A DNA stretch of 64,000 nt from Ilumatobacteraceae bacterium (GCA_044867195.1 JBIOUO010000009.1:297-64296); one strand, 5' to 3'. Positions 627 through 60,520 are shown, counted from the stretch's first letter. The notes: generated by a model not told the origin, from the letters alone. Program-made: numbers and translations.

Positions 627-1877
627 TCAGCGCCTGTCGTCACCGAGCGACGCGCCGTTCGACCGGGCGACCTCTCCGAGCCACCGGGCAGATGGCTTGA
701 CGGTCCGTACGAACGACTCGCGGTCGACCGCGATCAGGCCGAACGTCTTGGCGTATCCCGACATCCACTCGAAGTTGTCGAGCAGGCTCCAGTGCAGGTA
801 GCCCCGAACATCGATGCCGTCGGCGATGCATCGGGCCAGCCCGTCGAGCGCGGCACGGGTGTAGGAGATCCGAGCGGCGTCGTCGTCGGTCGCCATCCCG
901 TTCTCGGTCACCATCACCGGCACGCCGGCGCGTTCGGCGGCCAGACGCACGGTGTGACCGAGAGCTTCCGGGTAGACCTCCCAACCCGTCTGCATCGTCG
1001 CCACGCCCGCAGCCACCGGCAGCGGTCCGTCTGCCCCGAGGACATTGCGGGAGTAGGTCTGCACACCGACCCAGTCATCATCACGCGACACGTCGAGCCA
1101 ATCGAGTTGCGCTCTCTGGCGAACCCGCTCGAGGCGATCGTCACCGCCGTCGCCCGCCTGCAGATCGACGAGCGCGAGCGTCCAGCCGACCTGGGACTCA
1201 CCGCGAGCCGACTTGATCGCGTCGACGGCCGCGCGGTGGATGTCCGCCATCCGCTCGACGGTCGACCCGACTAATCCCATGTGGTAGCGGCTCGCGTCGT
1301 AGCCCCCAACGCCGGCCCCGGTGGACGACGTCGTCGCGGCGAGCGGACCGCGATCACCCGCACCGAGCGGGATCTCGCCTGTCAGCTGCAGCATGGTGAT
1401 GACGTTCGGCTCGTTGAGCGTCGCGACCCACGGCAGCAGATCACCGAAATGGTCGGTTGCTCGCTGTGCGTATCGTGCGAACCGGCTCGGGGCTTGATCA
1501 CCGTTCCACCCGCCCGCCCCGGCGAACCAGCGCGGCGTCGTGAAGTGACAGTACGTGACGACCGGGGTGAGGTCGTGCTCCCAGCAGGACCCGATCATCC
1601 TGCGGTAGTGGTCGAGCGCGGCTCGACTGAAGTACCCCTCCTCGGGCTCGATCCTCGACCACTCCAACGAGAACCGGTAGCTGTTCAGCCCCAGATCGGC
1701 CGCCAGTGCGATGTCCTCGCCGTACCGGTGGTAGTGGTCGCACGCGTCACCAGACGGTTCGGTGAACATCGAGTCCGGCGCCCACTCGAGCGGCCAGACG
1801 TCGGCGTTCACGTTGCCGCCCTCGACCTGATGGCCGGCGGTCGAGGCGCCCCACAGGAAGCCCGTGGGAACTGTCAT
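627..1877 (-). CDS. GH1 beta-glucosidase
   Basis: ORF 627..1970. Probable start is MTVPTGFLWGASTAGHQVEGG (ATG at 1875-1877). GH1 catalytic motifs TLNEPNV and VTENGMA are present. Confidence 0.9.
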   Translation of the reverse strand: MTVPTGFLWGASTAGHQVEGGNVNADVWPLEWAPDSMFTEPSGDACDHYHRYGEDIALAADLGLNSYRFSLEWSRIEPEEGYFSRAALDHYRRMIGSCWEHDLTPVVTYCHFTTPRWFAGAGGWNGDQAPSRFARYAQRATDHFGDLLPWVATLNEPNVITMLQLTGEIPLGAGDRGPLAATTSSTGAGVGGYDASRYHMGLVGSTVERMADIHRAAVDAIKSARGESQVGWTLALVDLQAGDGGDDRLERVRQRAQLDWLDVSRDDDWVGVQTYSRNVLGADGPLPVAAGVATMQTGWEVYPEALGHTVRLAAERAGVPVMVTENGMATDDDAARISYTRAALDGLARCIADGIDVRGYLHWSLLDNFEWMSGYAKTFGLIAVDRESFVRTVKPSARWLGEVARSNGASLGDDRR

Positions 1878-1890
1878 CGAGTCGTCCGGC

Positions 1891-2799
1891 TCACGACGAC
1901 ACGCGCTCGGCAGCGAGGACGTACATCGAGTCGTCGAGCACCGATTGGACGTCGGGCGCGTACCGAGCACGCAGCTCGGAGGCGAGGGCGAGGTCGACGA
2001 TGCGGAATCCGTGGCGACCGAGGAAGTGCTCGTAGTCCTCCGGATGCACGCCGAACGTGACGGGTTCGCCGATCAGGCTCAGCGCGCCTGGTGCTGCTCG
2101 CCGTGCCGAACCGAGCGGTCCGGGCTCGTCGACGAGGTGCCACATGTCGTGGGTGATCTGGGAGCCGTCCGCGCTGAGCTCGTGCACCGCGTCGAGCGTC
2201 GCCGTGACCGCGGCGCGCGTCAGGTACATGGCGACACCCTCCCAGGTGAAGAACGTCAGCCCACCTACCTCGAAGCCGGCGTCGGCAAGCACGTCGGTGA
2301 GCGCCTGCGTCTCGAAGTCGATCTCCACCCGCACGAGGTTGACCGTCGGGAACTGGTCGCTGTTCTTGGCGATCGTGGCCGCTTTGGCCCGGCTGATCGG
2401 AGCAAGGTCGACCTCGAACACCGGCCGCCCGTCGAGCTGGTCGGCGAACCGGTACGCACGCGTGTCGTATCCGGCGCCGAGCAGCACGACCTGCGTGACG
2501 CCGGCGTCGAGCGCGGCTGCGAGGTGCTCGTCGATGAACCGATGGCGCAACGGCACGTAGCTCGTCCCGCTGGCGCCCAACTGGCGCAACACGCGTCCGG
2601 TGAAGGTCCCTGACCACACCGCCAGCGTTCGTCGCGCCGCCGGCGACACGAACAGCTGCGCCCACGGATCGTCGACCACCCGCTCGTCCGGCGCTTTGAG
2701 GTGCTCGACGGCGCGGGCCATCGTCACCGCTTCCGCGGTCAGGCTCGGTCGGGACTGCAATCGGTGGGCGAACGGGCGCAGCGGATCGGAGTCGCTCAT
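1891..2799 (-). CDS. class I SAM-dependent methyltransferase (Leu-carboxyl / mycobacterial O-methyltransferase-like family)
   Basis: ORF 1891..2913. VVLLGAGYDTRAYRF SAM-binding segment and FFTWEGVAMYL motif. Start placed at MSDSDPL (2799) because the upstream part of the ORF is Arg/Pro-rich; 2814 is an alternative start. Confidence 0.85.
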   Translation of the reverse strand: MSDSDPLRPFAHRLQSRPSLTAEAVTMARAVEHLKAPDERVVDDPWAQLFVSPAARRTLAVWSGTFTGRVLRQLGASGTSYVPLRHRFIDEHLAAALDAGVTQVVLLGAGYDTRAYRFADQLDGRPVFEVDLAPISRAKAATIAKNSDQFPTVNLVRVEIDFETQALTDVLADAGFEVGGLTFFTWEGVAMYLTRAAVTATLDAVHELSADGSQITHDMWHLVDEPGPLGSARRAAPGALSLIGEPVTFGVHPEDYEHFLGRHGFRIVDLALASELRARYAPDVQSVLDDSMYVLAAERVSS

Positions 2800-2813
2800 C
2801 GGTCCATCATCCA

Positions 2814-3191
2814 TCAGCGGTGGCGGAGGACGCTGCGCAGCACGAGCAAGGCGACGATGGCGACGATCTGACCGCCGAGGACGATGCGGTTGAGGTCGAC
2901 TGCCGGCCGCCACGTCACGTTGCTGCCCTCGATGACGTAGGCGCCGGCGGGCTTGGCCTCCAGGCCGAACCCGCCTCCGGAGCCTGATCCGGTTCCGACA
3001 CCCTCGGGCCCGGTGCCCTCGCCGTGACCGCCGCCGCCCCCGCCGCGCACGGCGGCGACCGGGATGACGGTGACCCCGTTGCGTTCGTACGGCTCGCCGA
3101 ACAACCGCGAGACCGTCAACGCGTCGCGGGTCTGCTGCATCAACTGGTTCACATCCACGTCCATCTCCTCTCCATTCACTGGCGCACCCAT
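2814..3191 (-). CDS. GerW/YtfJ-family protein (sporulation-protein-YtfJ-like)
   Basis: 125-aa ORF with LFGEPYERNGVTVIPVAAV, a Gly-rich linker, then AKPAGAYVIEGSNVTW and a C-terminal TM helix. This layout is typical of actinobacterial GerW-family proteins. The start may instead be MDVDVNQL (3164), which is preceded by GGAGAGGAG. Confidence 0.7.
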   Translation of the reverse strand: MGAPVNGEEMDVDVNQLMQQTRDALTVSRLFGEPYERNGVTVIPVAAVRGGGGGGHGEGTGPEGVGTGSGSGGGFGLEAKPAGAYVIEGSNVTWRPAVDLNRIVLGGQIVAIVALLVLRSVLRHR

Positions 3192-3213
3192 TCCAGCAGG
3201 ACCGGCGACGGGC

Positions 3214-4632
3214 TCAGGCTGTCGCCCGAGAGGCGTCGAGCTCGATCTGCAGCTCGTGGATCGAGTTGTTGCCGTAGCCGTTGCGGTTCCACTCGGCCCG
3301 TTCCGGTTGCGATCGTCCGGACAGATCCGTCGCCCGCGATCGGATCGTCACCGGGCCGGAGCGGTCGAGGCGGGTGATCAGCTCCCACCACTGCCAGCTG
3401 TGACGGTGACGGTCGCCGACGAGCTTGGCCGCCTGCCATGGTCCGCCGTCGACGCTCACGTCGACGCGGTCGATCGGACCGCCACCGGACCATGCCACGC
3501 CGCGGATGGCGAGCTCGCCGGGGGCGACCGGCGCGTCCGGGCTCGGGTCGGTGATCAGCGAGCGGACGCGTTGCAGCGTGACCGGCTCGCGCTCGCTGGC
3601 GCCGTCGCGCTCCCACTCGTAGTTGTACTTGTCGGCCTGGTAGTAGCCGGCGAACGGCTGATCCACGGCCTCGATCTCGGTGAGCCACTTCACCGACGCG
3701 ACGCCGTACCAGTCGGGTACGACGAGCCGCACCGGGAATCCGTGGGGGACGGGGATCTGGTCGCCGTTCATCGCGTAGGCGACCAGCGCGCCAGCGTCGC
3801 GCGCGACGTCGACGCTGAGGCTGCGCTCGAACGTGATCGGCGCCGACCGCCCGTCGACGGGTCCCGAGTCGGCGCCGCGGAACACGAGCTCTCGCGCCTG
3901 GCGGTCGAGCCCGGCACGATCGAGGATCTCGCCGAGCGGGACGCCGGTCCACTCGGCCGTGCTCACGGCACCGTGGCGCCACTGCTCGCCGGGCGTCGGC
4001 GGGTCGAGCAGGAAGCGGCCGTTGCCGGCGCACTCGAGCGTGACGACGACCGTCTGCGACGGCAGCTGGCGCAACTCATGCAGCGCCAGGCGCAGCGGAC
4101 GCTCCACCCGCCCGGCCACGCGTAGCCGCCACGTCGCCGGATCGAGCGCCGGGATGGCGAAGTGGTTGCGGACATAGAAGTGGGCGTTGGGCATCACCAC
4201 GCCGCCGAGGAGCGCGGCGATCGAGGTCTCCCCGTTGAGTGGGTGGGCCCGGTGGACCAGCAGGCCGGCGTCGATCGCCGACTCGCACGCCTCCTCCGGA
4301 TCGACCGAGCTTCCGGCTCCGAGGTCGGGGGGAGCCGCCACACACCCCCCGCTGGCAACCGCCCGCACGCACGTCGACGCCGGGTAGACGTCGACCGTGC
4401 CGGCCTCGGCGAACGGTTGCACGAACCGGCGGACCTGGTCGGCGCCTCCGGCCTCGACGATCATGTACATCACGTGGTCGCCCTCGACGACCGCCTCGCC
4501 CTTGATCTCCACGCCGTAGCGGCGGGCGCTGGGGCGGCTCAGGTGGTTCAGCAACAGCGCGCCCAGCGCCGGATCTCCGGCCGGACAGCGCGTCCCCTCG
4601 TGCTCGTGCCGAACGATGAACAGTCCCATCAC
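3214..4632 (-). CDS. sulfite-oxidase-family molybdopterin oxidoreductase with an extra ~100-aa N-terminal domain
   Basis: 472 aa. Residues ~110-472 carry the Oxidored_molyb-like core (HFYVRNHF, TLECAGNGR, VVPDWYGVASVKWL) and a Mo-co dimerisation domain (VDVSVDGGPWQAAKL...). Residues 1-100 (MMGLFIVRHEHEGTRCPAGDP...) form a separate small Cys-containing domain. Confidence 0.85.
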   Translation of the reverse strand: MMGLFIVRHEHEGTRCPAGDPALGALLLNHLSRPSARRYGVEIKGEAVVEGDHVMYMIVEAGGADQVRRFVQPFAEAGTVDVYPASTCVRAVASGGCVAAPPDLGAGSSVDPEEACESAIDAGLLVHRAHPLNGETSIAALLGGVVMPNAHFYVRNHFAIPALDPATWRLRVAGRVERPLRLALHELRQLPSQTVVVTLECAGNGRFLLDPPTPGEQWRHGAVSTAEWTGVPLGEILDRAGLDRQARELVFRGADSGPVDGRSAPITFERSLSVDVARDAGALVAYAMNGDQIPVPHGFPVRLVVPDWYGVASVKWLTEIEAVDQPFAGYYQADKYNYEWERDGASEREPVTLQRVRSLITDPSPDAPVAPGELAIRGVAWSGGGPIDRVDVSVDGGPWQAAKLVGDRHRHSWQWWELITRLDRSGPVTIRSRATDLSGRSQPERAEWNRNGYGNNSIHELQIELDASRATA

Positions 4633-32971: not shown

Positions 32972-33256
32972 TCAGCTGGCGACGGCGCGGGCAGACTGCG
33001 GGCCGAACTCGGCGGCGACGACCGACACCGTGTTGGCGGGGAAGCCGCCGCGACGGGCGTGCTCGCGAATCGTCTCGGCGTCCTCGGCCTCGTGCACGCA
33101 GTACACCTTGTCGCCGGCGACGAAGCTGTTGACCCACCGGTACGGGACGCCCAGCGAGGCGACGGCGTCGTTGGACGTGGCGGCGATCTCGGCGAGCTGA
33201 TCCTCCGTGAGCTCGGACGCACCGGGGATCTCGCGCTCGATCATGAACCTCAGCAT
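32972..33256 (-). CDS. DUF4242-like small protein
   Basis: In-frame part of ORF 32972..33661, from ATG 33254-33256: MLRFMIEREIPGASELTEDQLAEIA...YCVHEAEDAETIREHARRGGFPAN, 94 aa. Confidence 0.75.
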   Translation of the reverse strand: MLRFMIEREIPGASELTEDQLAEIAATSNDAVASLGVPYRWVNSFVAGDKVYCVHEAEDAETIREHARRGGFPANTVSVVAAEFGPQSARAVAS

Positions 33257-33416
33257 TGCTCTGTCTCCTGTTGTGCTCGGCCTCCGGCGGTCGCCGGTCG
33301 GCGTCGCCAACGATGCGTTCACGCGACCGCACCGCGCATCGGGAGACGCTCCCCATCTTTCGCGATCGGCCCCCCAATCGGCGGCCCAACGGAGCTGCTC
33401 GATACGCTCCGGGGGC

Positions 33417-48380: not shown

Positions 48381-49862
48381 TCAGCGCGTTGGCGTGGTCC
48401 GCGCGCGGCGCGGTGGTCCGTCGAGGGCCGCGTCTCGTGGGTCCGGTGGGATCTGGATCCCCCACTTGCTGGCGATGCGGGGGTCGATCGTCAGGCCGCG
48501 TTCGCTCCATCGGGCCTGGGTGATGAACGCCCGCAACGCGTACCTCGTCACCCGTCGTGACAGCAGCCCGATCGATGCGCGGCCGACCGCTCTCGTCCGG
48601 GCGCGCGCCGTCCACCGCTCGATCACGCGCCTGTCGTTCAGCACCAGCTCGACGTACCCTCCCTCCTCGATGTCCAGCCAGTTGGCGTGCTCGGCGCCGA
48701 TCAGGTAGCGGGCGACGAATGCCGGCGCACGTTGCAGCGGTTGGGGCAGCGGGTAGGCGAGCTCCTGCATCAGCGCCTTCGCCATCCGCCGTCCGGCATC
48801 GCTGGGGTGTTGCAGCTGCTCGGCCAGGTAGTCGTATGCGGCGTCCATGTCGATCGTGTTCATCGGCAGCTGCCGGTTGCCGGTCCATGCCTGGGTGCGC
48901 CTGTTGATCCCGACCTGCTCGAACGACCGCTCGTCTCCGATGCCGAGATGCCAGCCGACGACGTTCCACAGGAAGTGGAACGCCTCGCGGTCCTTCTTCG
49001 TGGGGGCGACGCCGAGCCGCTCGAGGGCGCGGAGGACGACCGTGGTGAACGTGCCCAGCGTGGCGAGGAGATCCTGCTGGTTGAGTGGTGGCTGATCACG
49101 GCCCTCCAGCCCGATCGTCCGCAGCCGCGCGTCCCAGACCGTGGGCGGCGGCTCGTCCTCGCTCCGCCGGCGCAGCGACGCCAGCCCGATCTCCGTCGTG
49201 TCGAGCAGCATCCATCTGATCGCGGCATGCGTGAGCCGGACCCGGCGCGCCGCCCGCGCGCCGAACTCGCCGCTGTGCAGGCTCGTTCGCTTCAGCTGCC
49301 AGAGGTCGGGCGTCGGGCTCAACACGTTGACCAGGAACTGGCCGGTCTCCTGGATGCGGCGGGTCCAGTTGCGGAACAGCTCGCCGGTGAGATCGAGTGC
49401 CTGGACGCCGCGCTGCCCAAGGTATGCCTCGGGCAGTGAGGCGTGGAACAGGGCGGTGAGGATGGCCACACCGTTGTCGTCGAAGTAGGCCTGGGCGTGC
49501 TTGATGAGGTCGATGTTCTCGGTGACGATCTCGTCGAGGTCGGCGCCCTCGGTGAGGAAGTCGCGGATCGGCTCGAGGGCGCGGTCGACAGGTTTGGCGA
49601 TCTCGGCGAGGACGTACGGGAGCAACGTGCGGCGGTCCACGGTCGCCATACCGTCAGGTCCGGCGCCCCCTCTCGTCACCGTGCTGATGACGGCAGCGGC
49701 GGTGTCGTCGCCGGCATTGGCGAGGGCGTCGAGGTGCGCGGTGACCGCCTTCGTCACGGCGTCCATGACGTCAGCGGCCGTCTCGTCGCCGGCGCGTGCG
49801 AGCGTGTCGAGGCGCTTCGCCGCGCGCACCGAGAGTTCGGAGGGGCGTTCAGGTGCGGCCAT
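48381..49862 (-). CDS. oxygenase MpaB-family (DUF2236) protein with ~110-aa N-terminal extension
   Basis: 493 aa with LFHASLPEAYLGQRGVQAL, VRLTHAAIRWML, PPLNQQDLLATLGTFT and FLWNVVGWHLGI, which are DUF2236 landmarks. The start lies 2 nt after the upstream gene stop. Confidence 0.75.
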   Translation of the reverse strand: MAAPERPSELSVRAAKRLDTLARAGDETAADVMDAVTKAVTAHLDALANAGDDTAAAVISTVTRGGAGPDGMATVDRRTLLPYVLAEIAKPVDRALEPIRDFLTEGADLDEIVTENIDLIKHAQAYFDDNGVAILTALFHASLPEAYLGQRGVQALDLTGELFRNWTRRIQETGQFLVNVLSPTPDLWQLKRTSLHSGEFGARAARRVRLTHAAIRWMLLDTTEIGLASLRRRSEDEPPPTVWDARLRTIGLEGRDQPPLNQQDLLATLGTFTTVVLRALERLGVAPTKKDREAFHFLWNVVGWHLGIGDERSFEQVGINRRTQAWTGNRQLPMNTIDMDAAYDYLAEQLQHPSDAGRRMAKALMQELAYPLPQPLQRAPAFVARYLIGAEHANWLDIEEGGYVELVLNDRRVIERWTARARTRAVGRASIGLLSRRVTRYALRAFITQARWSERGLTIDPRIASKWGIQIPPDPRDAALDGPPRRARTTPTR

Positions 49863-49864
49863 GG

Positions 49865-51118
49865 CTACACGCTCTCCGCCGCGACCGCCGCGACCGCCGC
49901 GACCGCCGCGTCCGGGGAGGCCGGCTCGCCCACCCGACCGAGGTCGTACAGCGCGGAGACCTGTTGGCGTGAGCGGAACACGTTAGCGATGAAGTTCAAC
50001 CGCTCCGGCAGCCGGAGCCAGTTGTCCACCGACGTGTGCGCGCCTTGGCCCGCGGAGCGGTCGTGCAGCTGCCACTCGGCCCAGAGTCTGGCGTCGTCGA
50101 TCACCTGCAGGTGGTACGGGAAGAAGTCGCCATCCGCGTAGCGGTCCTGGTCCTCGTCTGGTTGGTCCTCGCGCAGCACGGGGTGAGCGGGCGGCGGCAG
50201 CGGCAGGTCGAGGCCGAAGCGCAGATCCTCGGCGCCGAGGATCAGCGAGTACACGTAGCGCGTGGCGGCGATCTCGAACCCTCTGTCCAGCACGTCGAGA
50301 TGGTCCTTGACTCGGACGTAGGCACGCGTGACGGCGTTCGAGACCAGCGTCGGGCGACCCGTCCAGCGGGTGATCAGCTTGAGGCGCAGTGCCAGCGGCA
50401 GGTAGCGCAGGTTGCGCTCCAGCACGGGCTGGAGGCGCCGTTGCTCATAGGCCACCAGCCGAAGGTTGCCGAGCAGGATCAGCTCGGCACGTCGCTTGCG
50501 GCCGGCGTCGATGTCGCGATCGCCGCCGGGGTTGACCGTCGGGAACGTCGAGAGTCCCGACCAGAGCACCTCGAAGTACGGGATCAGCGCGTCCTGCAAC
50601 AGCTTGACGTCCGGTGCTCCCAACAGGGTCGTCGAGCTTCCGGCCAGCTGCGCGGCGTCGCCCTTCAGGCGTGCGGTGACGCACTTCCACGCGCCCATCC
50701 AGTCTGGATGGTCGCTCTGCTCCCGCGCCCTCGCGGTCGCCTCGAGCAGCGCCCACATCGCCGCACCTGTCTCGCCGAAGATCGCTGCCTGGCCGATCGC
50801 GATGTTGCGGGCGATCACGCCCGGATCCGGGAGCAACGCGTCGCTGATCCCGTCATACAGCCGGCGCAGCGGTCGCCGCGTCGACGCGCCCGGGTCGACG
50901 TCCACACGGAGCGTGCGCGAGGTCCACGCCGCAAATGTCGCGAACGTGGCGTTCTCCGGCTCCTGGTCGGCATGCAGGAACCGGCCGAGGGCGACCGACA
51001 GCTCGCCGTACCCCTTCTCGATCAACGAGTTCGCCTGGCGGGGATCGGTCGCCGCGAGGGATGGCGCCAGCGCCATCGTCGCGGGGAACGCCTGGACGGC
51101 CTCGGTGAAGCTGATCAT
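49865..51118 (-). CDS. hypothetical protein (417 aa), first gene of the operon with the MpaB-like gene
   Basis: Long ORF with good composition. The C-terminus carries an (AAV)x3 repeat encoded by (GCGACCGCC)x3 at 49881-49907. No family confidently recognised. Confidence 0.6.
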   Translation of the reverse strand: MISFTEAVQAFPATMALAPSLAATDPRQANSLIEKGYGELSVALGRFLHADQEPENATFATFAAWTSRTLRVDVDPGASTRRPLRRLYDGISDALLPDPGVIARNIAIGQAAIFGETGAAMWALLEATARAREQSDHPDWMGAWKCVTARLKGDAAQLAGSSTTLLGAPDVKLLQDALIPYFEVLWSGLSTFPTVNPGGDRDIDAGRKRRAELILLGNLRLVAYEQRRLQPVLERNLRYLPLALRLKLITRWTGRPTLVSNAVTRAYVRVKDHLDVLDRGFEIAATRYVYSLILGAEDLRFGLDLPLPPPAHPVLREDQPDEDQDRYADGDFFPYHLQVIDDARLWAEWQLHDRSAGQGAHTSVDNWLRLPERLNFIANVFRSRQQVSALYDLGRVGEPASPDAAVAAVAAVAAESV

Positions 51119-51403
51119 CGCAACCGTCCGGCGTGCAGTCGGTCGTCACTCGCGGCGGGTTGTGGCACGGGCACCTCCGGTCTCCCTCAGCTCCTTGGTC
51201 CAGCCACGGCGCACTCGATGCGGAGGTCTCCGCCGCAAGGCTGCGATCGGCGACCTGGCGTCGTCGGCGAGCGCGCTCGCCGGCACATCGTCGCACATCG
51301 GGGCGGCGACGAGCTGCGCTTTGCGCCACCGAGCGTTCGTCCGCAGAACGGTCAGGTCCGCCACGCCCGACGGTGCCTACGCTGTCACCGACAGGGAGTC
51401 GCG

Positions 51404-54166
51404 GTGAGTCACCAGTCGCAGCAGACCTTGACGTTCTTCTTCACGGACATGGACGACAGCACGCGCCTGTGGAGCGACTTCGAGGCCGCCATGCCGGAGG
51501 TCATCGAGCGCCACGATGCGCTGCTGACCGCACCGATCGAGGCGGAGGGCGGCGCCGTCGTCAAGCACACCGGGGACGGGATCAACGCCGTGTTCACCGA
51601 TCCACGAGCGGCCGTGCGGGCCGCTGTGCAGGCGCAGATCGCGTTCAGAGGGGCCGACTGGTCGCCGCTGCCGCGGCTGGCCATTCGCATCGGGATCCAC
51701 ACCGGAGAGGCGCTCGAGCGGGCCGGCGACTACCTCGGCATCTCCCTCAACCACGCGGCCCGATTGCGTGATGCCGGTCACGGCGGGCAGATCCTCGTGT
51801 CGACGCCGGTCGCGGAGCGACTGGCTGCCGATCCGGATGACGAGATCGGGGCGACCGATCTCGGCAGCCACCGGTTGCGTGGGCTTCCCGGCCGGCATCG
51901 CATCTACCAGATCCGCCACCCCAAGCTGGTCGGCCGGTTCGCCGCCCTGCGCACACTCGACGCGGCCGCACCGCTGAGCGTGCCGGCGACCTCGTTCAAC
52001 GGCCGCGCCGGGGAGCTCGCCGAGCTGTCGGGCCTGCTCGAGCACGCCCACACGGTGACCGTGATCGGCCCGGCCGGCGCGGGCAAGACCCGCTTGGCTG
52101 TCGAGGTGGGCGTGGAGATCGGGCATCGCTTCCGCGATGGGGTGCGGATGATCGACCTCGCCCGTGTCGAGCCGTCCGATGTCGCGTCGGCCATCGCCGC
52201 GGGGCTGGGCATCGTCCGCCGCAGTCGCAAGTCGTACGCGGAGAGCGTCGTCGACTGGCTCAACCGCAAGCGGTTGCTCGTCGTCATCGACAACTGTGAC
52301 CACGTCCTCGAAACGGTCGGCGCGCTGCTGCACGACGCCGCCGCGGTCGCGAGGGGAGTCACGTTCCTGTGCACGAGCCGCCAGCCGTTGGGCGTCGCCG
52401 GTGAGATCCTGTTCACCGTCAAGCCGCTGAGCATCCCACCCGCGACAGAGGCGGGTGAGCGTGTCGCCGGCTATCCAGCCGTCCAGCTCTTCGCCGAGCG
52501 GGCAGCGGCCGCGCGGTACGGATTCCAGCCCTCGACCGACCAGCTGCAGATCATCGCCCGCATCTGCCGCAAGCTCGACGGAATCCCGCTCGCCCTCGAG
52601 CTGGCCGCCGCGCGCGTCCGCTCGATGAGCCTGGACGACATCGCCCGGCACCTCGAGCCCACGTCGCCCCTGCTGGCGGCGTCTTGGGCCGACCATCCGC
52701 ATCACAGCACCTGGCTCGCCACCATCGAATGGTCCTACGAGCTGCTCGCCGACGAGACACGGCATGTCTTCGCCCGGATGTCGGTGTTCAGCGGCTCATG
52801 CACGGTCGAGTCAGCCCGCGCCGTGTGCACGCGCAGTGGCTCGGAGCGAGAGGTGATCGCCGCGCTCGCCGATCTGGCCGATCGCTCACTGCTGGTCGTC
52901 GACCTCGATCAGTCCGACAGCCGCTATCGGATGCTGTCGACGCTCCGCGACTTCGCCGCCGACAAGCTCGCCGAGATGGGCGACGGCGACGAGTGCCGCG
53001 ATCGGCACTGCCGGTTCTACGTCGAGTTGGCGGAGACGGCCGGAGAGCGCCTGTTCACGAACGCCGAGGTGCGCTGGGCCGAGCAGCTGTCGGCCGACTT
53101 CGGCAACCTCCAGGCTGCCCACGCATGGGCGCTGCAGCGCGGCGATCTGGATCTCGACGTCCGTCTGCTGCTGGCACTGTGGAACTACGGCTTGCAGCGA
53201 CTCTCACCCGAGTACTTCCGCTGGGTCGAGGAAGCGATGGTGGTGTTGCCGCTCGAGACCCATGCCAGAGCACCCGAGCTGTGCGGGATCGCCGCGCTCG
53301 GTGCATGGCTCCGCGGCGACTCGCGTGAGTGCGCACGGCTGTGCCGAGCAGCGTTCGACGCCGAGGAGGCAACCGGCTCGGGCGTGACGATGCCGGCGCG
53401 CATGGCGGCGATCGTGGTCTCCTCGTACGCCCCGGACACCACCGATCCGGCCGTCGCCGAGCTGGCGATCGAGGCCGGGTCGCGCTTCCTCGAGACCGTC
53501 GAGTGGTGCCGGACCTCCGGAAGCGCGTTCTGGCTTGGATACAGCTTCGTCACCGGCTCGGCGGGGCGGGCGATGGCCGGCGACACCGATCGTGCCGTGC
53601 TGCTCGCTGGTCGCGCCCTCGACGCGGCCAAGGCGTCGGGATGCTCGACCTCACTCGCGTGGGCGCAGCTTGCGCTGGCGTTGGCGTTGCAGCAACGCGA
53701 ACCGGGCCGCGCTGAGGAGCTGCTCGACGAGAGCGTGCGCACGGCGCGTGCCGTCGAGAGTCGGCTCGTGCTCGGGATCTCGCTGTCGCTCCTGGCGGTG
53801 CTGCGGCGCCGGCTGATGCGTCCCCTGGACGCGATCCCGTCGCTGCTCGAGCTGCTCGATCAGTCGGACCGCCTCGGCAACCGCCCGCAGGCGTGGCACG
53901 CGGTGCGTGAGACGGCGATGTGCCTCGGGGTGCTCGGGGTCAGCGACGTCGCCACGACGCTGCTGGCGTCCGTCGACGGCGCCGACCTCGTGATGCCCCT
54001 GCTGCCGGGCGACGGGGCGCATCTGTCGATGCTGGTGGCGGGATTCCAGCAGCGCCTCGGCCCGGACGGGTACGCGCGGGCGTGGGCCACGGGCGCCGGG
54101 CTCGACCGCCGGGCGGCGCTGGCCCTTGCCCGCTCGGCGCTCGCCGACGCCCAACCCGAAGGCTGA
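51404..54166 (+). CDS. class III adenylate/guanylate cyclase fused to a P-loop (NB-ARC-like) ATPase and TPR-like repeats
   Basis: In-frame part of ORF 50036..54166, from GTG 51404, which is preceded by AGGGAG. Contains TFFFTDMDDSTRLW, KHTGDGINAVF and IGIHTGEA (cyclase), then VIGPAGAGKTRLA (Walker A), LLVVIDNCDH (Walker B) and a helical repeat C-terminus. No HTH at the end. Confidence 0.9.
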   Translation: MSHQSQQTLTFFFTDMDDSTRLWSDFEAAMPEVIERHDALLTAPIEAEGGAVVKHTGDGINAVFTDPRAAVRAAVQAQIAFRGADWSPLPRLAIRIGIHTGEALERAGDYLGISLNHAARLRDAGHGGQILVSTPVAERLAADPDDEIGATDLGSHRLRGLPGRHRIYQIRHPKLVGRFAALRTLDAAAPLSVPATSFNGRAGELAELSGLLEHAHTVTVIGPAGAGKTRLAVEVGVEIGHRFRDGVRMIDLARVEPSDVASAIAAGLGIVRRSRKSYAESVVDWLNRKRLLVVIDNCDHVLETVGALLHDAAAVARGVTFLCTSRQPLGVAGEILFTVKPLSIPPATEAGERVAGYPAVQLFAERAAAARYGFQPSTDQLQIIARICRKLDGIPLALELAAARVRSMSLDDIARHLEPTSPLLAASWADHPHHSTWLATIEWSYELLADETRHVFARMSVFSGSCTVESARAVCTRSGSEREVIAALADLADRSLLVVDLDQSDSRYRMLSTLRDFAADKLAEMGDGDECRDRHCRFYVELAETAGERLFTNAEVRWAEQLSADFGNLQAAHAWALQRGDLDLDVRLLLALWNYGLQRLSPEYFRWVEEAMVVLPLETHARAPELCGIAALGAWLRGDSRECARLCRAAFDAEEATGSGVTMPARMAAIVVSSYAPDTTDPAVAELAIEAGSRFLETVEWCRTSGSAFWLGYSFVTGSAGRAMAGDTDRAVLLAGRALDAAKASGCSTSLAWAQLALALALQQREPGRAEELLDESVRTARAVESRLVLGISLSLLAVLRRRLMRPLDAIPSLLELLDQSDRLGNRPQAWHAVRETAMCLGVLGVSDVATTLLASVDGADLVMPLLPGDGAHLSMLVAGFQQRLGPDGYARAWATGAGLDRRAALALARSALADAQPEG

Positions 54167-54172
54167 TCCGGC

Positions 54173-54613
54173 ATGGCGGTGGTGATGACGGCTGGCGAGG
54201 TGCGCGAGTTCCTGATGGTGGGGACGCGCACCGGCAAGCTGGCGTGGACCGCGTCGAGCGGTCAGCCGCACGTCGCTCCGATCTGGTTCGTGGTCGACGA
54301 CGGCGCATCGGACCTGGAGGTGGTGTTCAACACCGGCAAGGAGACGGCGAAGGGTCGCGCCCTGGCGCGCGACCCGCGTGTCGCGCTGCTCGTCGACGAC
54401 GAGCGACCGCCGTTCGCGTTCGTCAAGCTGACCGGCCAGGTGGCGATCAGCGAGGACCTGGCGGAGGTCGCCCGCTGGGCGACGCGCATCGGTGGCCGGT
54501 ACATGGGCGCCGAGCGGGCCGAGGAGTTCGGACGCCGCAACGGCGTGCCGGGGGAGCTACTGGTGCGGCTCCGCCCGGCACGGGTCCTCGCGTTGCGCGC
54601 GATCGCCGACTGA
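54173..54613 (+). CDS. PPOX-class (pyridoxamine 5'-phosphate oxidase-like) probable F420-dependent enzyme
   Basis: 146 aa with TGKLAWTASSGQPHVAPIWF and DPRVALLVDDERPPFAFVKLTGQV. Confidence 0.85.
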   Translation: MAVVMTAGEVREFLMVGTRTGKLAWTASSGQPHVAPIWFVVDDGASDLEVVFNTGKETAKGRALARDPRVALLVDDERPPFAFVKLTGQVAISEDLAEVARWATRIGGRYMGAERAEEFGRRNGVPGELLVRLRPARVLALRAIAD

Positions 54614-54623
54614 CGGCGATGGG

Positions 54624-57224
54624 TCAGGCCGGGACGGCCGCCTTGAAGAACTCGCGCAGCGCCTCGGCCATCTCGGCGCGGATGCTGGCACCGGACAGGA
54701 CCACGCCGACCATCGTCGGCGAGGTGTGCGTGTGACCGCGCGCAGTGGTCCACCGCACATGCACCCCGTCGGCCTCCATCGCCTTGGCATAGGCGATGCC
54801 CTCGTCGCGCAGCGGGTCGAACTCGCATGCCACCACGAACGCCGGCGGCAGTGCGGACAGGTCGGCGGCGCGCAGCGGCGACACCCGGGGATCGGAGCGG
54901 GCGGCCGGATCGGCGTAGTGGTCCCAGAACCACCTCATCAACGCGGCGGTCAGGATGTAGCCGTCGGCGTTGTCGATGTACGACGGGCGCGTCATGTCGG
55001 CGTCGGTCACCGGGGTCAGCAGGACCTGGCCGACGATGTCGGGCCCACCGGCGTCACGCGCCCGCTGGCAGGCGACCGCCGCCAGGTTCGCACCGGCGCT
55101 CCAGCCGGCGACGGCCAGCTCGCCGGGAATGCCGCCCAGCTCCTGGACGTGGGCGGCGACCCACTTGACGGCAGCGAACGCGTCGTCGGCGGCGGCGGGG
55201 AAGCGGTGCTCGGGTGCGTGGCGGTAGTCGACCGATACCACGACCGCGTCGGCCCGCACGCACAGGTCGCGGCACAGCGGTTCGTCGGACTGCTTGTCAC
55301 CGAGCACCCAGCCGCCGCCGTGGAAGTAGACGACGATCGGGTGCGGCCCCGGCGCAGTCGGCGGGCGGTAAAGGCGGTACTCGAGGTGGCCGGCCGGGCC
55401 GGGGAGTTCGCCGTCGACGATCTCGCCGACCTCCGGTCCCGGCGGGCGGGCAGCGTTGAGCTCGGTGGTCAAGGCGCGAGCCTCGGCCGGGCTCAGCGTC
55501 TCGATCAGTGGCAGGTCGAGCTCGGCCATCGCGGTGAGCACGGCGAACACGTCCGGCTGCAGGCGGCGGATCACCCCGTCGGCGCACTGGGTGCCGTTCG
55601 GCCCGGACAGCTGAAAGCCGAGGTAGCCGCGTTCCACGACCTCCTCGCACGTCGCCCGGTACACGTCGACGCCGCCGACGTAGGGCAGGAACACGCGCGG
55701 CTTGCCGGGCACGTTGGCCCCCATGTACCACGAGTTGGCCACCGGGAACAGCGTGATGTCGGCGCAGTCGTGGACGTGCTGGTCCCACCCGCTCTCGGCG
55801 GTGTGCGTCGGCTCGATGCGGTCGAAGCCGTGGTCGCGCAGGTGGGCCAAGCAGTCGGCGACCCAGTCGACGTGCTGCTCGATCGACACCGACATGTTGG
55901 ACAGCACCGACGGGCTGCCAGGACCGGTGATCATGAACAGGTTCGGGAACCCGACGGTCATCAGCCCGAGATAGGTGTGCGGACCGTGGGCCCACTTGCG
56001 CTTCAGCGTGAGCCCGTGGCGCCCGGTGACGTCGACGGATACCAGCGCGCCGGTCATCGCGTCGAAGCCGGTGGCATAGACGATCGCATCGACCTCGAAC
56101 GACTCGTCGATGGTGTCGATCCCGGTCTCCGTGATCGAGGTGATCGGGTGCTTGCGCAGGTTGACGAGGCGGACGTGGGGCTGGTTGAACGTGGCGTAGT
56201 AGTCGGTGTCGAGACACATCCGCTTGGTCATCATCGGGTAGTCGCGCGGGCACAGCGCCTCGGCGGTCTCCCGGTCGTCGACGATGTCGCGGATCTTCTC
56301 CCGGATCATCTCCGAGATCGTGTCGTTCGCCTCGCGGTTGGTGAGCAGGTCGGCGAAGCGGGCGCCGAACGCCAGCAGGTGCCCCTCCTGCCACGCCTCC
56401 TCGAACCGGCGCCGTCGCTCGTCCTCGGACAGCACGGCGACGGTCTCCATGGCGATCGGCATCGTCACGCCGGCCATCGACCGCTTCGCCGACTGGCGAT
56501 AGGTGTCTCGGTCCTCGGCGAGCTGAGCCAGCCGGTCGGCCGGCGCCGGGCCGTTGCGGGCCGGGATCGAGAAGTTCGGCGTGCGCTGGAACACGACCAG
56601 CTGCGACGCCTGCTTGGCGATCAGCGGGATCGACTGGATGCCCGACGAGCCGGTGCCGATCACGGCTACGCGCTTGGCGCTGAAGTCGACGCCCTCGTGG
56701 GGCCAGCCGCTCGTGTAGTACACGTCGCCGGAGAACCGATCGGTCCCGGCGATGTCGGGCTCCTTCGGCTGCGACAGGCACCCGGTCGCCATGATGTACC
56801 AGCGGCACGACAGGCGGTCGCCGGCGTCCGTGGTGATCGTCCAGCGGGAGGCGGCGTCGTCCCAGGTCGCTGCTGCAACCCGCGTCGAGAAGCGGATGTC
56901 CGGACGGAGGTCGTACTTGTCGGCCACGAACTGGAGGTAGCAGAGGATCTCGGGCTGGGCGGCGTACTTCTCCGACCACGTCCACTCGGACTCCAGCTCG
57001 GGATCGAACGAGAACGTGTAGTCGGTGGTCGGGATGTCGCAGCGGGCACCGGGATAGCGGTTCCAGTACCACGTCCCGCCGACGTCGTCGGCCGATTCGA
57101 GGACCTTCGTCGACAAGCCGAGCTGGCGCAGCCGGTGGAGCATGTACAGCCCGGAGAACCCGGCGCCGACGACCACCGCGTCCAGCTCGTCGACCGATCC
57201 GTTCCCGTCGCGTCCTGCAGTCAT
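54624..57224 (-). CDS. Baeyer-Villiger (flavin-containing) monooxygenase fused to a C-terminal HSL-family alpha/beta-hydrolase (esterase)
   Basis: ORF 54624..57356, from ATG 57222-57224. N-terminal ~545 aa: [63 protein letters not shown] and ATGFDAMTG (PAMO/CHMO-like). C-terminal ~310 aa: [25 protein letters not shown] (GxSxG) and DPLRDEG. Confidence 0.9.
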
Positions 57225-57368
57225 CAGCGAACCCCCTGTGGTCTCGTGCGACTTGTCCGTCGCGGCCGTACCCAGTGTCGTCGCCAGGCCAACGCCGATG
57301 CCAACGCAGCGCTCCACTACGTTGACGGCGCGAGCGGGGCAGGTCGAGGGGAGCAAGGGAGGTCAGCG

Positions 57369-58604
57369 ATGCCCGAGCCGACGGGAGAGGCGACGACCGT
57401 GCGCGGTGAGCACCACGGCTGCCCGGTCATCGCCATCGACTACCGCGAGAACCGGCCCGCGCACTGGACGCACCAGAGCCTCAACGAGGTGCGCGAGCTG
57501 GCGCCGATCACGTGGAACGAGCTGCCCCGGGGCTTCTGGATGGTCAACCGCTATGACGACGTGCGGGAGGCACTGCAGGACCAGGTGACGTTCACCAACG
57601 AGGTCACGAGCACGCTCGGCGACCCGTCGATGAAGGTCCGCCTGCTGCCGCAGAACCTGAACGGGCTGGAGCACACGCAGTACCGCCAGGTGCTCAACCC
57701 ATGGTTCTCGCCGGGCAGCTGCGACCGCACGATGCCGCTGGCCCGGCGCCGGGCAATCGAGCTGATCGAGGAGCTGGCGCCACGGGGTCAGTGCGACATG
57801 ACGCACGACTTCGCCATGCTCTTCGCCACCGAGGTCTTCCTCGCCCACCTCGGGCTGCCGACCGAGGACGGTCCGTATCTCCTGCCGCTCGTCGAGGCGA
57901 TGTTCCGCGGCTTCTTCGGCGAGGACGCCGCCGAGCAGGCGGCCACCGTCGCCGAGCTGTACCGCTACTACCAGGCCAAGATCGACGACCGCATCGCCAA
58001 CCCTGGTGACGTCACCACCGACTTCATCACCTACGTGATGCAGGCCCAGGCCGGAGGGGAGCCACTGCCGCCGGAGGACGCCCGGACGCTGTGCTTCACG
58101 ATCATGCTCGCCGGGCTCGACACCACCCGCTCGGCGCTCGGCTACATCTTCCAGCACCTCGCCACCCACGACGACGACCGCCGGCTGCTGGCCGCCAACC
58201 CCCAGCGCATCCCCGACGCGGTGGAGGAGTTCCTGCGCCTGTACACGCTCGTGTTCCAGGACGGCCGCTACGTGTCGCAGGACATCGATCTCCACGGCTG
58301 CCCGATCAAGCAGGGCGACATCGTCTGGCTCGGGCTGGCGTCCGCCAACCGCGACCCCCGCCAGTTCGACCGCCCCGACGAGTTCGTCGCCGACCGGTCG
58401 CCGAACAAGCACCTCGGGTTCGGGGCCGGCGCCCACCGCTGCCTCGGATCACACCTCGCGCGCAAGGAGCTCGCCCTCGTGCTCGAAGAGTGGTTGAAGC
58501 GGATCCCCGAGTTCCGCATCGCCACCGACGAGCCGCTCGTCGAGCGCGGCGGCCAGCTGATGCTGCTCAACGTCCCCCTGGCCTGGGACGTCCGCGGCTC
58601 CTGA
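57369..58604 (+). CDS. cytochrome P450
   Basis: In-frame part of ORF 54492..58604, from ATG 57369. Contains AGLDTT (I-helix), EEFLR (ExxR) and FGAGAHRCLGSHLA (heme Cys loop). 411 aa. Confidence 0.92.
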   Translation: MPEPTGEATTVRGEHHGCPVIAIDYRENRPAHWTHQSLNEVRELAPITWNELPRGFWMVNRYDDVREALQDQVTFTNEVTSTLGDPSMKVRLLPQNLNGLEHTQYRQVLNPWFSPGSCDRTMPLARRRAIELIEELAPRGQCDMTHDFAMLFATEVFLAHLGLPTEDGPYLLPLVEAMFRGFFGEDAAEQAATVAELYRYYQAKIDDRIANPGDVTTDFITYVMQAQAGGEPLPPEDARTLCFTIMLAGLDTTRSALGYIFQHLATHDDDRRLLAANPQRIPDAVEEFLRLYTLVFQDGRYVSQDIDLHGCPIKQGDIVWLGLASANRDPRQFDRPDEFVADRSPNKHLGFGAGAHRCLGSHLARKELALVLEEWLKRIPEFRIATDEPLVERGGQLMLLNVPLAWDVRGS

Positions 58605-58691: not shown

Positions 58692-59699
58692 TCATGACGG
58701 GGGGTGCCAGCGGCCGCGCTTCTCCAACTCCGGGAGGACCTCGGTGGCGAAGAGCTCGAGGCTGGTGGACCCGAGCGCTGGGTCGAGGCCGCCCATCAGC
58801 GGGTGCAGTGTCAGCTCGACGTCCGGGTCGAGGCCCTCGATGTAGGCGATCGCGTCGGCCGGCGTGAGGACCTGGAAGCTCGGGCTCGCCTTCAGCTCGG
58901 CGACGTCCGACACCGGCGGGTACGGCGTCGCTCCCACGCCACGCTCCTTGGCCCACTCGGCGTTGGCGTTGCTGGTGTACATCACGTGCGGGGCGACGAC
59001 GTCCCAGTCGCGCTCCGGGTCCTCGCTGATGAACAGGAACAGCGGGCCCTTGGCGACGGGCCGAGCGGGGACCGGCTTGCCGAGCCGCTCGAGTTCGGCG
59101 ACATACGTGTCGAACAGCTGCGGCAGGGCGGGCATGAAGTTGTCGCCGATGCGCGCCGCCCGCACGGCCGACGCCTCCGTCGAGCCGCCGATGTAGATCG
59201 GCGGGCGCGGCTTCTGCACCGGCGCCGGCAGGATCGTCACCGTCTGGCTCTCGTACTCGAACGGCTCGCCGGTCCACGCCTGCTCGAGGATGCCGATCGT
59301 GCGCTCCAGGATCGGCACTCGCTGCTTGCGGTCGATGCCGAACAGGTCGTACTCGAGCTGGCGGTAGCCGATGCCGAGCGTCATCTCGACCCGCCCACCG
59401 CTGATCACGTCGAGCACGGCGAGATCCTCGGCGAGGCGGATCGGGTTGTGCAGCACGGCGATGATCGCCGAGAAGTGGACCCGCATCCGCGCCGTCGACC
59501 CGAGGATCGCGCCGGCGAGCACCATCGGCGACGGGCAGTAGCCGTCGTCGGCGCCGTGGTGCTCGGCGAGGTACACCGTGTCGAAGCCGACGTTGTCGGC
59601 GAACGCGCACTGCTCGACGACGGCGGGATACAGCTCGGCGGCGGGCGCGCCGATCGAGGGCGCGCGCATGTCGTAGCGAAGAGAGAGCCGGATCCCCAT
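58692..59699 (-). CDS. LLM-class flavin/F420-dependent oxidoreductase
   Basis: In-frame part of ORF 58692..60434, from ATG 59697-59699: MGIRLSLRYDMR...FDTVYLAEHHG...GGRVEMTLGIGY. 335 aa. Confidence 0.85.
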   Translation of the reverse strand: MGIRLSLRYDMRAPSIGAPAAELYPAVVEQCAFADNVGFDTVYLAEHHGADDGYCPSPMVLAGAILGSTARMRVHFSAIIAVLHNPIRLAEDLAVLDVISGGRVEMTLGIGYRQLEYDLFGIDRKQRVPILERTIGILEQAWTGEPFEYESQTVTILPAPVQKPRPPIYIGGSTEASAVRAARIGDNFMPALPQLFDTYVAELERLGKPVPARPVAKGPLFLFISEDPERDWDVVAPHVMYTSNANAEWAKERGVGATPYPPVSDVAELKASPSFQVLTPADAIAYIEGLDPDVELTLHPLMGGLDPALGSTSLELFATEVLPELEKRGRWHPPS

Positions 59700-59761: not shown

Positions 59762-60520
59762 TCAGATCGACGTGTAGCCGCCGTCGACGGCGAGCGCGGC
59801 GCCGGTGATGAACGAGGCGTCCGGTGACAGCAGGAAGGCGATCGCGCCGGCGATCTCGGCCGGCATCGCCAGCCGGTCCTGGGGCGGCCGGACCCAGCTC
59901 GCGGCCACAGGCGCCTCTCGCGTCGACGGGCCCGATAGGGCAGCCGTGTTCGCCATCAACCCGGTCTGCACCTTGCCCGGGCACACGCAGTTGGCGCGCA
60001 CGCCGCGGTCGGCGTACTCGGCGGCGACGGCGCGCGTCAGCTGCAGCACACCGCCCTTGGACGCGTCGTAGCTCGGCGCCGGACCGGCGGCGACGAGCGA
60101 CGCCACCGACCCGATCGTCACGATCGCCCCGCCGCCGGCGGCCACGAGGTGGGGGATGGCGTGCTTGATCGTGAGGAACGTGCCGGTGAGGTTGATTCGC
60201 AGCACCAGCTCCCACTCCTCGAGCGACGTCAGGTGGGTGTCGCTGGCGCGTGCGATCCCGGCGGCGGCGACGACGCCGTCCAAACCTCCGAACGCGTCGA
60301 CCGCGGCGTCGACCGCTGCGGCGACCGACGCCTCGTCGGTCACGTCGGCGACGAGGCCGAGACCGGGCACGGGCAGGCGTCCGGCGACCTCGTCGGCCGC
60401 GCCGGGACGGGTGTCGAGCACCGCCACCTGCCACCCGTCGGCCGCCAGCCGCTCGGCTGCCGCGGCGCCGATGCCGCTGCCACCACCTGTCACGAGCGCT
60501 CTACGCACCACCGCCTCCAT
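59762..60520 (-). CDS. SDR-family oxidoreductase
   Basis: 252 aa with TGGGSGIGAA (cofactor motif), the SYDASKGG (YxxxK) catalytic region and a PG motif. Confidence 0.9.
   Translation of the reverse strand: MEAVVRRALVTGGGSGIGAAAAERLAADGWQVAVLDTRPGAADEVAGRLPVPGLGLVADVTDEASVAAAVDAAVDAFGGLDGVVAAAGIARASDTHLTSLEEWELVLRINLTGTFLTIKHAIPHLVAAGGGAIVTIGSVASLVAAGPAPSYDASKGGVLQLTRAVAAEYADRGVRANCVCPGKVQTGLMANTAALSGPSTREAPVAASWVRPPQDRLAMPAEIAGAIAFLLSPDASFITGAALAVDGGYTSI

Follow-up and report, generated by a model that had tools for sequence, protein, structure and literature searches.

Does a single open reading frame (ORF) that joins a Baeyer-Villiger monooxygenase (BVMO) to an esterase encode a genuine natural fusion, and could its two halves act one after the other on the same substrate? 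The question is raised by a gene on the minus strand of a 64,000-nt stretch of DNA from an Ilumatobacteraceae bacterium (GCA_044867195.1, JBIOUO010000009.1:297-64296; hereafter the window), in which an initial annotation made from the sequence alone had recognized both enzymes on one polypeptide and proposed that it could carry a ketone through an ester to an alcohol plus an acid. We found that the fused gene is a genuine, conserved natural BVMO-esterase fusion and, judging from its sequence and a predicted model, we put at roughly 70% the probability that its product is a bifunctional enzyme whose docked domains act in sequence, converting ketone to ester and ester to alcohol plus acid.

The gene runs from an ATG at 57224 to a stop codon at 54624-54626 and encodes 866 amino acids (aa), bearing out the claim of one 866-codon ORF with neither stop nor frameshift. 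As listed, the ORF reaches back to a TTG at 57356 (910 aa), and we prefer the ATG because the closest relative, P0001, is also 866 aa long. The DNA is ~70% GC and contains long chance ORFs in several frames. The G+C fraction at third codon positions (GC3) remains between 0.91 and 0.98 in each 100-codon block of the fused gene, with no dip at the junction of the two domains, and because of this uniformity we take its frame to be the true coding sequence rather than a chance high-GC ORF. A scan for promoter and terminator consensus sequences over 54100-57600 gave no match, and none of the RNA runs searched for the fused gene contain it. On the opposite strand, a 1370-aa ORF (54492-58604, plus) has arisen antisense by chance in the high-GC DNA and continues into the frame of the genuine cytochrome P450 gene next door; coding periodicity is confined to its 3′ end, from 57369.

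The junction between the domains (nt 55557-55607) is spanned without gaps by contigs from soil-metagenome runs belonging to two studies. As relatives we took the best 120 proteins from a 5.8-billion-protein collection, with conservation scored on an alignment of 121 sequences; these best 120 are all ~865-aa fusions at 68-88% identity, the nearest database entry being 88% identical to the fused protein. We also scanned a junction-only profile against one genome per GTDB species and took the best 80 loci, all 80 of which match the whole junction, nearly all in a single tblastn alignment in one frame that covers residues ~10-860 at 59-75% identity. The stop or frameshift at the junction that the initial annotation had named as the event that would split the protein into two genes is absent from the independent contigs and from the 80 species genomes. 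The rarity it implied proved wrong: at least 80 species genomes carry the same junction, and fusions of this type are already mentioned in PMC6563810, so that the protein itself is new while its architecture is widespread and already in the literature.

The N-terminal part is a complete type I BVMO with two Rossmann motifs, as had been proposed. Residues 15-541 (of 542) of the phenylacetone monooxygenase (PAMO) chain 1w4x align with residues 12-539 of the fused protein (E=1.9e-186), Pfam returns a Pyr_redox_3/FMO-like match at residues 17-215, and the ten-residue PAMO-like segment said to close the BVMO part is present, ending at residue 539. By Foldseek, the domain superposes on PAMO of Thermobifida fusca (1W4X/2YLT) with a target-normalised TM score of 0.96 at 52% identity and on steroid monooxygenase (STMO) of Rhodococcus rhodochrous (4AOS) with 0.94 at 51%. 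With these two enzymes it shares both Rossmann motifs, the GGxWxxxxYPGxxxD motif, the equivalents of D66, R337 and K336, and QRT, and its PSxLSNM active-site loop has the same length as that of PAMO; PAMO and STMO stop where the linker of the fused protein starts, and neither has an esterase. The three Gly of the GAGFSG motif for flavin adenine dinucleotide (FAD) are kept in 120 of the 121 aligned sequences, with a gap in the remaining one, and residues 49-63, which conform to the BVMO-specific motif [A/G]GxWxxxx[F/Y]P[G/M]xxxD as quoted in PMC9836352, are invariant in all 121. Residues for NADPH specificity are found in QRT (213-215) and K334, aligned to PAMO R217, T218 and K336, and the counterparts of the catalytic PAMO residues R337 and D66 (R335 and D63) align and are invariant among the relatives; taken together, the catalytic and cofactor residues D63, R335 and R214/T215/K334 are invariant or nearly so across the 120 relatives.

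In four soil-metagenome runs, contig depth at 57022-57118 rises from about 10 to 146-348. This peak sits exactly over the invariant motif of residues 49-63 (57036-57080), and contigs from many other soil BVMO genes are probably stacking there over the conserved sequence.

The classical BVMO fingerprint was recovered in part. The region itself is present at residues 164-175, but its central His, His173 in PAMO, is replaced by Tyr170, and the strict pattern FxGxxxHxxxW[P/D] is therefore broken. Among the 121 family members this position holds Phe in 105, Tyr in 5, Leu in 5 and His in 3, and in many unfused PAMO-like representatives it varies as well (M, Q, V, R, Y or F), which makes the strict fingerprint an imperfect descriptor.

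The C-terminal part is a complete alpha/beta-hydrolase of the hormone-sensitive-lipase (HSL) family, in which the annotated HGGGW, GWSAG and DPLRDEG motifs are all present (Table 1). Pfam PF07859 (Abhydrolase_3) matches residues 631-834 at 248.6 bits, well above its gathering score of 25. Against the NCBIfam equivalog LipP1 (NF058653), the domain aligns with all 300 profile positions and scores 344.5 bits, narrowly below the curated cut-off of 350, and we therefore regard LipP1 as its nearest subfamily without assigning the domain to it. The best solved relative of this half is Est8 (4ypv), matching residues 551-836, and an AlphaFold2 model places the cap helices at residues 557-569 and 579-591. 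A C-terminal domain without a functional catalytic triad had been named as a second way in which the annotation could fail, and we observed instead that Ser709, Asp803 and His833 are intact and conserved across the 120 relatives, Ser709 being kept in 120 of the 121 sequences and the adjoining Trp708 in all of them. Est8, EST2 (1EVQ) and the LipP1 family have in common with this domain the Abhydrolase_3 fold, HGGG, GxSAG, DPLxDEG, the catalytic His and a two-helix cap. The elbow of these HSL esterases reads GDSAG, GTSAG or GESAG, whereas here it is GWSAG and the esterase sits behind a BVMO; P0263, a 310-aa esterase not joined to any other domain, also has a GWSAG elbow and shows 56% identity.

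The short linker between the domains is itself conserved: among 120 relatives the only length change is a single 1-residue insertion, many of its positions are at least 90% conserved, and its mean pairwise identity is 66%. The AlphaFold2 model gives it as a beta-hairpin with a local confidence (pLDDT) of about 95. For the whole protein, modelled from a 109-sequence alignment, the mean pLDDT is 91.0 and the predicted TM score (pTM) 0.90. Because, by our own estimate, a pTM of 0.90 for 540 + 310 residues needs confident relative placement, we infer that the two domains would be docked in a fixed orientation. Among PDB entries, none spans both domains, the longest alignments reaching ~550 columns with query-normalised TM scores of at most 0.60.

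Table 1. Features of the fused gene and of its neighbours, in window coordinates.
Feature	Coordinates	Strand	Basis or remark
Fused gene	54624..57224	-	Single ORF, 866 codons plus stop; GC3 0.91-0.98 throughout
Shine-Dalgarno-like AGGGGG	57232..57237	-	8 nt 5′ of the ATG; read from sequence, putative function
Type I BVMO domain, residues 12-539, PAMO/STMO-like	55608..57191	-	Full-length PAMO 1w4x match, E=1.9e-186
FAD Rossmann motif GAGFSG, residues 20-25	57150..57167	-	Motif reading; alignment of 121 sequences
BVMO-specific motif, residues 49-63, including active-site Asp63 (PAMO D66)	57036..57080	-	Aligned to PAMO
Classical fingerprint region, residues 164-175, with Tyr170 for the central His	56700..56735	-	Alignment to PAMO and relatives
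NADPH Rossmann motif GTGSSG, residues 190-195	56640..56657	-	Conforms to GxGxx[G/A]
Lys334-Arg335 (PAMO K336/R337; NADPH binding, catalytic Arg)	56220..56225	-	PAMO alignment; invariant
Linker, 17 residues, 540-556	55557..55607	-	Between last PAMO-like residue and first cap helix
HSL-family (Abhydrolase_3) esterase, residues 557-856, two N-terminal cap helices	54657..55556	-	Pfam, NCBIfam, Est8/EST2 alignments
Oxyanion-hole motif HGGGW, residues 635-639	55308..55322	-	Est8 alignment
Nucleophile elbow GWSAG, residues 707-711, Ser709	55092..55106	-	Aligned with GDSAG of Est8
DPLRDEG, residues 803-809, catalytic Asp803	54798..54818	-	Est8 alignment
Catalytic His833 (GHTH)	54726..54728	-	Aligned with Est8 catalytic His; invariant
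F420-dependent PPOX-class oxidoreductase	54173..54613	+	TIGR03618 at 112.9 bits (cut-off 79)
Cytochrome P450, P450cam/CYP143/CYP101/P450cin-like	57369..58604	+	Divergent from fused gene, 144-nt spacer; the P450s named are its best solved relatives
Short-chain dehydrogenase/reductase (SDR)	59762..60520		2.5 kb from fused gene

Hosts of the 80 loci include Acidimicrobiia and other Actinomycetota metagenome-assembled genomes (MAGs), Pseudonocardia, Blastococcus, Streptosporangiaceae, Mycobacterium persicum, M. intermedium and Mycolicibacterium llatzerense, together with many Bradyrhizobium, Variovorax and other Burkholderiales, Burkholderiaceae among them, and Gammaproteobacteria MAGs. Because such high identity reaches across phyla, the distribution suggests that the fused gene has spread horizontally between them. 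The mean pairwise identities of the two halves are 73.2% and 72.3%, which corresponds to equal evolutionary rates, and their distance matrices correlate with r=0.52, a value reached in 0 of 300 permutations; from these two observations we conclude that the halves have been passed on as one unit.

Unfused counterparts illustrate how such a gene could have arisen. In a plasmid collection that comprises plasmids and other secondary replicons, 25 records have a place covering at least 80% of the query, and those inspected contain two adjoining genes annotated ‘NAD(P)/FAD-dependent oxidoreductase’ and ‘alpha/beta hydrolase’, in the same order as the two domains. The pair H351_RS30275/RS30280 on Rhodococcus erythropolis pLRE138 has a 1 nt spacer and is followed by two SDR genes, and the pair on Burkholderia sp. 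RPE67 p1 has a spacer of 18 nt. In Nocardia farcinica NCTC11134 (NZ_LN868939.1; L087 958-4101), ORFs 958..3123 and 3127..4101 lie in the same frame with a single stop between them, one point mutation short of fusion, so that loss of one stop codon would yield the fused architecture. These three pairs and that on R. jostii RHA1 pRHL1 match the fused gene in families, order and strand and cover 95-99% of the query at 46-51% identity, but they encode two polypeptides instead of one, and their operons also include SDRs and IclR/LysR regulators, which the fused gene is without. BVMO-hydrolase clusters have also been described in PMC9836352. On this comparison, a tightly coupled BVMO-then-esterase gene pair is the likely precursor, and loss of the stop codon or short spacer in such a translationally coupled pair most probably gave rise to the fusion, which would thereafter have been inherited and horizontally spread as a single unit.

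An exhaustive search of 1.84 billion representative proteins revealed further layouts. Additional BVMO-esterase groups are P0124/P0125 (GESAG/GESSG elbows), P0147/P0191, P0267 and P0225, and P0146 joins a BVMO to an Abhydrolase_1 domain. In P0123 (851 aa) the order is reversed, with an esterase (GDSAG) preceding a BVMO half that is 57% identical to the fused-gene family, and P0217 (1114 aa) is an SDR-BVMO-Abhydrolase_3 triple fusion, which would combine the dehydrogenation of an alcohol, a Baeyer-Villiger oxidation and the hydrolysis of an ester in a single chain. P0123, P0217, P0124/P0125 and P0146 thus resemble the fused protein in tying a BVMO covalently to a hydrolase and differ from it in domain order, extra domains or hydrolase family. 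In a neighbour-joining tree built from the BVMO domains, a rough one without bootstrap, the fused-gene family is monophyletic with the reverse-order P0123 as its sister, and unfused BVMOs lie between this family and the other fused groups. This separation argues for independent fusion events, and BVMO and esterase have probably been joined several times.

In type I BVMOs, NADPH reduces FAD, O2 gives rise to a peroxyflavin, and attack on the ketone leads by way of a Criegee intermediate to an ester; PAMO and STMO convert methyl ketones to acetate esters. HSL esterases hydrolyse short- and medium-chain esters with a Ser-His-Asp triad and an HGGG oxyanion hole. In the fused protein, the N-terminal PAMO/STMO-like domain would use FAD and NADPH to insert oxygen beside the ketone carbonyl, giving an ester or lactone, and the C-terminal serine esterase would hydrolyse the ester made by the BVMO to an alcohol and an acid, the net effect being that the C-C bond beside the carbonyl would be cut by one gene product. 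If the substrate were a methyl ketone, by analogy with PAMO and STMO, the overall reaction would be R-CO-CH3 + NADPH + O2 -> R-OH + acetate. The order of reactions put forward in the initial annotation, ketone to ester to alcohol plus acid, gains support from the unfused BVMO-then-esterase pairs and from the SDR-BVMO-esterase triple fusion; the latter, together with the SDR genes beside unfused pairs, would also fit a longer route from alcohol to ketone, then to ester and finally to alcohol plus acid. The benefit of fusion may lie in 1:1 co-expression and in the closeness of the two active sites, and the evidence does not require a closed tunnel between them.

Several points weigh against the reading as a sequential bifunctional enzyme whose domains are docked. 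In place of the canonical fingerprint His there is Tyr170 here and Phe in most relatives, and mutation of the His reduced activity in other BVMOs; the docked arrangement hangs on one AlphaFold confidence value; neighbouring genes are unconserved, so that context yields no pathway; and our literature search, in which most subscription journals were outside reach, found natural fusions mentioned in one review, with no biochemical characterisation and no activity data for the fused protein or any family member. The first of these points could be taken to mean that one domain is catalytically dead and fulfils a structural or regulatory role, for example a BVMO disabled because its fingerprint His is gone, but the remaining catalytic and cofactor positions show little or no variation, the fingerprint position is variable in many unfused PAMO-like representatives, and both domains are under equal constraint. 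We consider a dead domain improbable and rejected the specific idea of a BVMO inactivated by the His-to-Tyr replacement. About as improbable, in our assessment, is that the esterase acts first or independently, either freeing a masked keto-compound for the BVMO or serving a separate substrate and fused for the sake of co-regulation. Domain order does not fix reaction order, and an esterase-first fusion exists in P0123, yet the chemistry of BVMO-esterase operons runs from ketone to ester to hydrolysis, and the triple fusion fits alcohol, ketone, ester and hydrolysis in that succession. An assembly or sequencing artefact, in which a missed stop or indel falsely merged two adjacent genes, draws some support from close unfused pairs that are as little as one stop codon from fusion, but with contigs from two studies gap-free across the junction, the same junction in 120 proteins and 80 genomes, and uniform GC3, we rejected it and regard its residual probability as negligible.

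More plausible than these, though still unlikely, is true channelling, in which the docked domains would form a tunnel or shielded path and the ester would travel from the flavin site to Ser709 before it could mix with the bulk solvent. In favour of it, the linker is both structured and conserved, the pTM of 0.90 implies a defined interface in the model, and the fusion has been retained across phyla. Against this stand the reverse-order P0123 and the unfused pairs, which are also maintained, and because they persist we think that a specific tunnel geometry is not needed for the pathway; many natural fusions, moreover, act by proximity alone. We would grant a similarly small chance to a bolder combination of these elements, a horizontally mobile single-gene ‘ketone-cleaving’ module in which rigid docking allows a shielded hand-over of the ester to Ser709 and the loss of the fingerprint His throughout the family has adjusted the hinge of the BVMO to the docked esterase. 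The sequential bifunctional enzyme is the reading that we retain.

Natural BVMO-esterase fusions, known from genome analysis, have been noted by Aalbers & Fraaije (ChemBioChem 2019, PMC6563810), who describe the esterase as able to hydrolyse what the BVMO produces and cite van Beilen et al. 2003 for the existence of such fusions; the fusions of that review have the same architecture and proposed logic as the protein described here, and the review gives no sequence, family or data for them. Mascotti 2015 and Riebel 2012 contain no mention of BVMO-esterase fusions. Public annotations of the ~865-aa relatives read ‘alpha/beta hydrolase fold domain-containing protein’, ‘monooxygenase’ or ‘CzcO/acetyl esterase’, and a bifunctional name could be given to them in genome annotation. 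Cascades of a BVMO and an esterase serve biocatalysis, for example in the conversion of ketones or fatty-acid derivatives to alcohols and acids, and a natural fusion would, with its defined linker of 17 residues, offer a template for engineered ones, as well as a clean system for the question of channelling versus proximity. Points of modest interest are the family-wide departure from the fingerprint His, the structured and conserved linker, and the split-to-fused series, in which stages of fusion are on view from 1-nt pairs and a one-stop in-frame pair to the fused, reverse-order and three-domain SDR-BVMO-esterase proteins.

Around the fused gene, the PPOX-class gene converges on its 3′ end with the stop codons 10 nt apart, and no terminator-like hairpin was found. 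The P450, SDR and PPOX neighbours gave only a few weak tblastn matches across the 80 related loci, clustering of all flanking ORFs at related loci returned no family shared above genus level, and the neighbours of the two closest relatives differ from those of the fused gene. Although the neighbourhood resembles terpenoid ketone pathways, we rejected a cassette running from P450 through dehydrogenase and BVMO to esterase as a clue to the substrate, the neighbours not being conserved in the 80 loci. The fused gene is usually found alone, which fits a self-sufficient module.

Other ORFs of the window were noted in passing. The ORF at 58692-59697 (minus strand) has a strong coding signal, with GC3 of about 0.95, and matches nothing in Pfam or NCBIfam at the thresholds applied; visual inspection suggests a likeness to luciferase-like monooxygenases. 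Two large regulator-like genes lie on the plus strand, one at 33201-36017 with AAA_16 and LuxR-type GerE domains, and the other at 50036-54166 with an adenylate/guanylate cyclase domain and AAA_22, whose true start is probably well inside the listed ORF. The ORF at 48381-49982 (minus strand) matches Pfam PF09995 (E=4.6e-9), the catalytic domain of MpaB/Lcp (rubber oxygenase-like) proteins.

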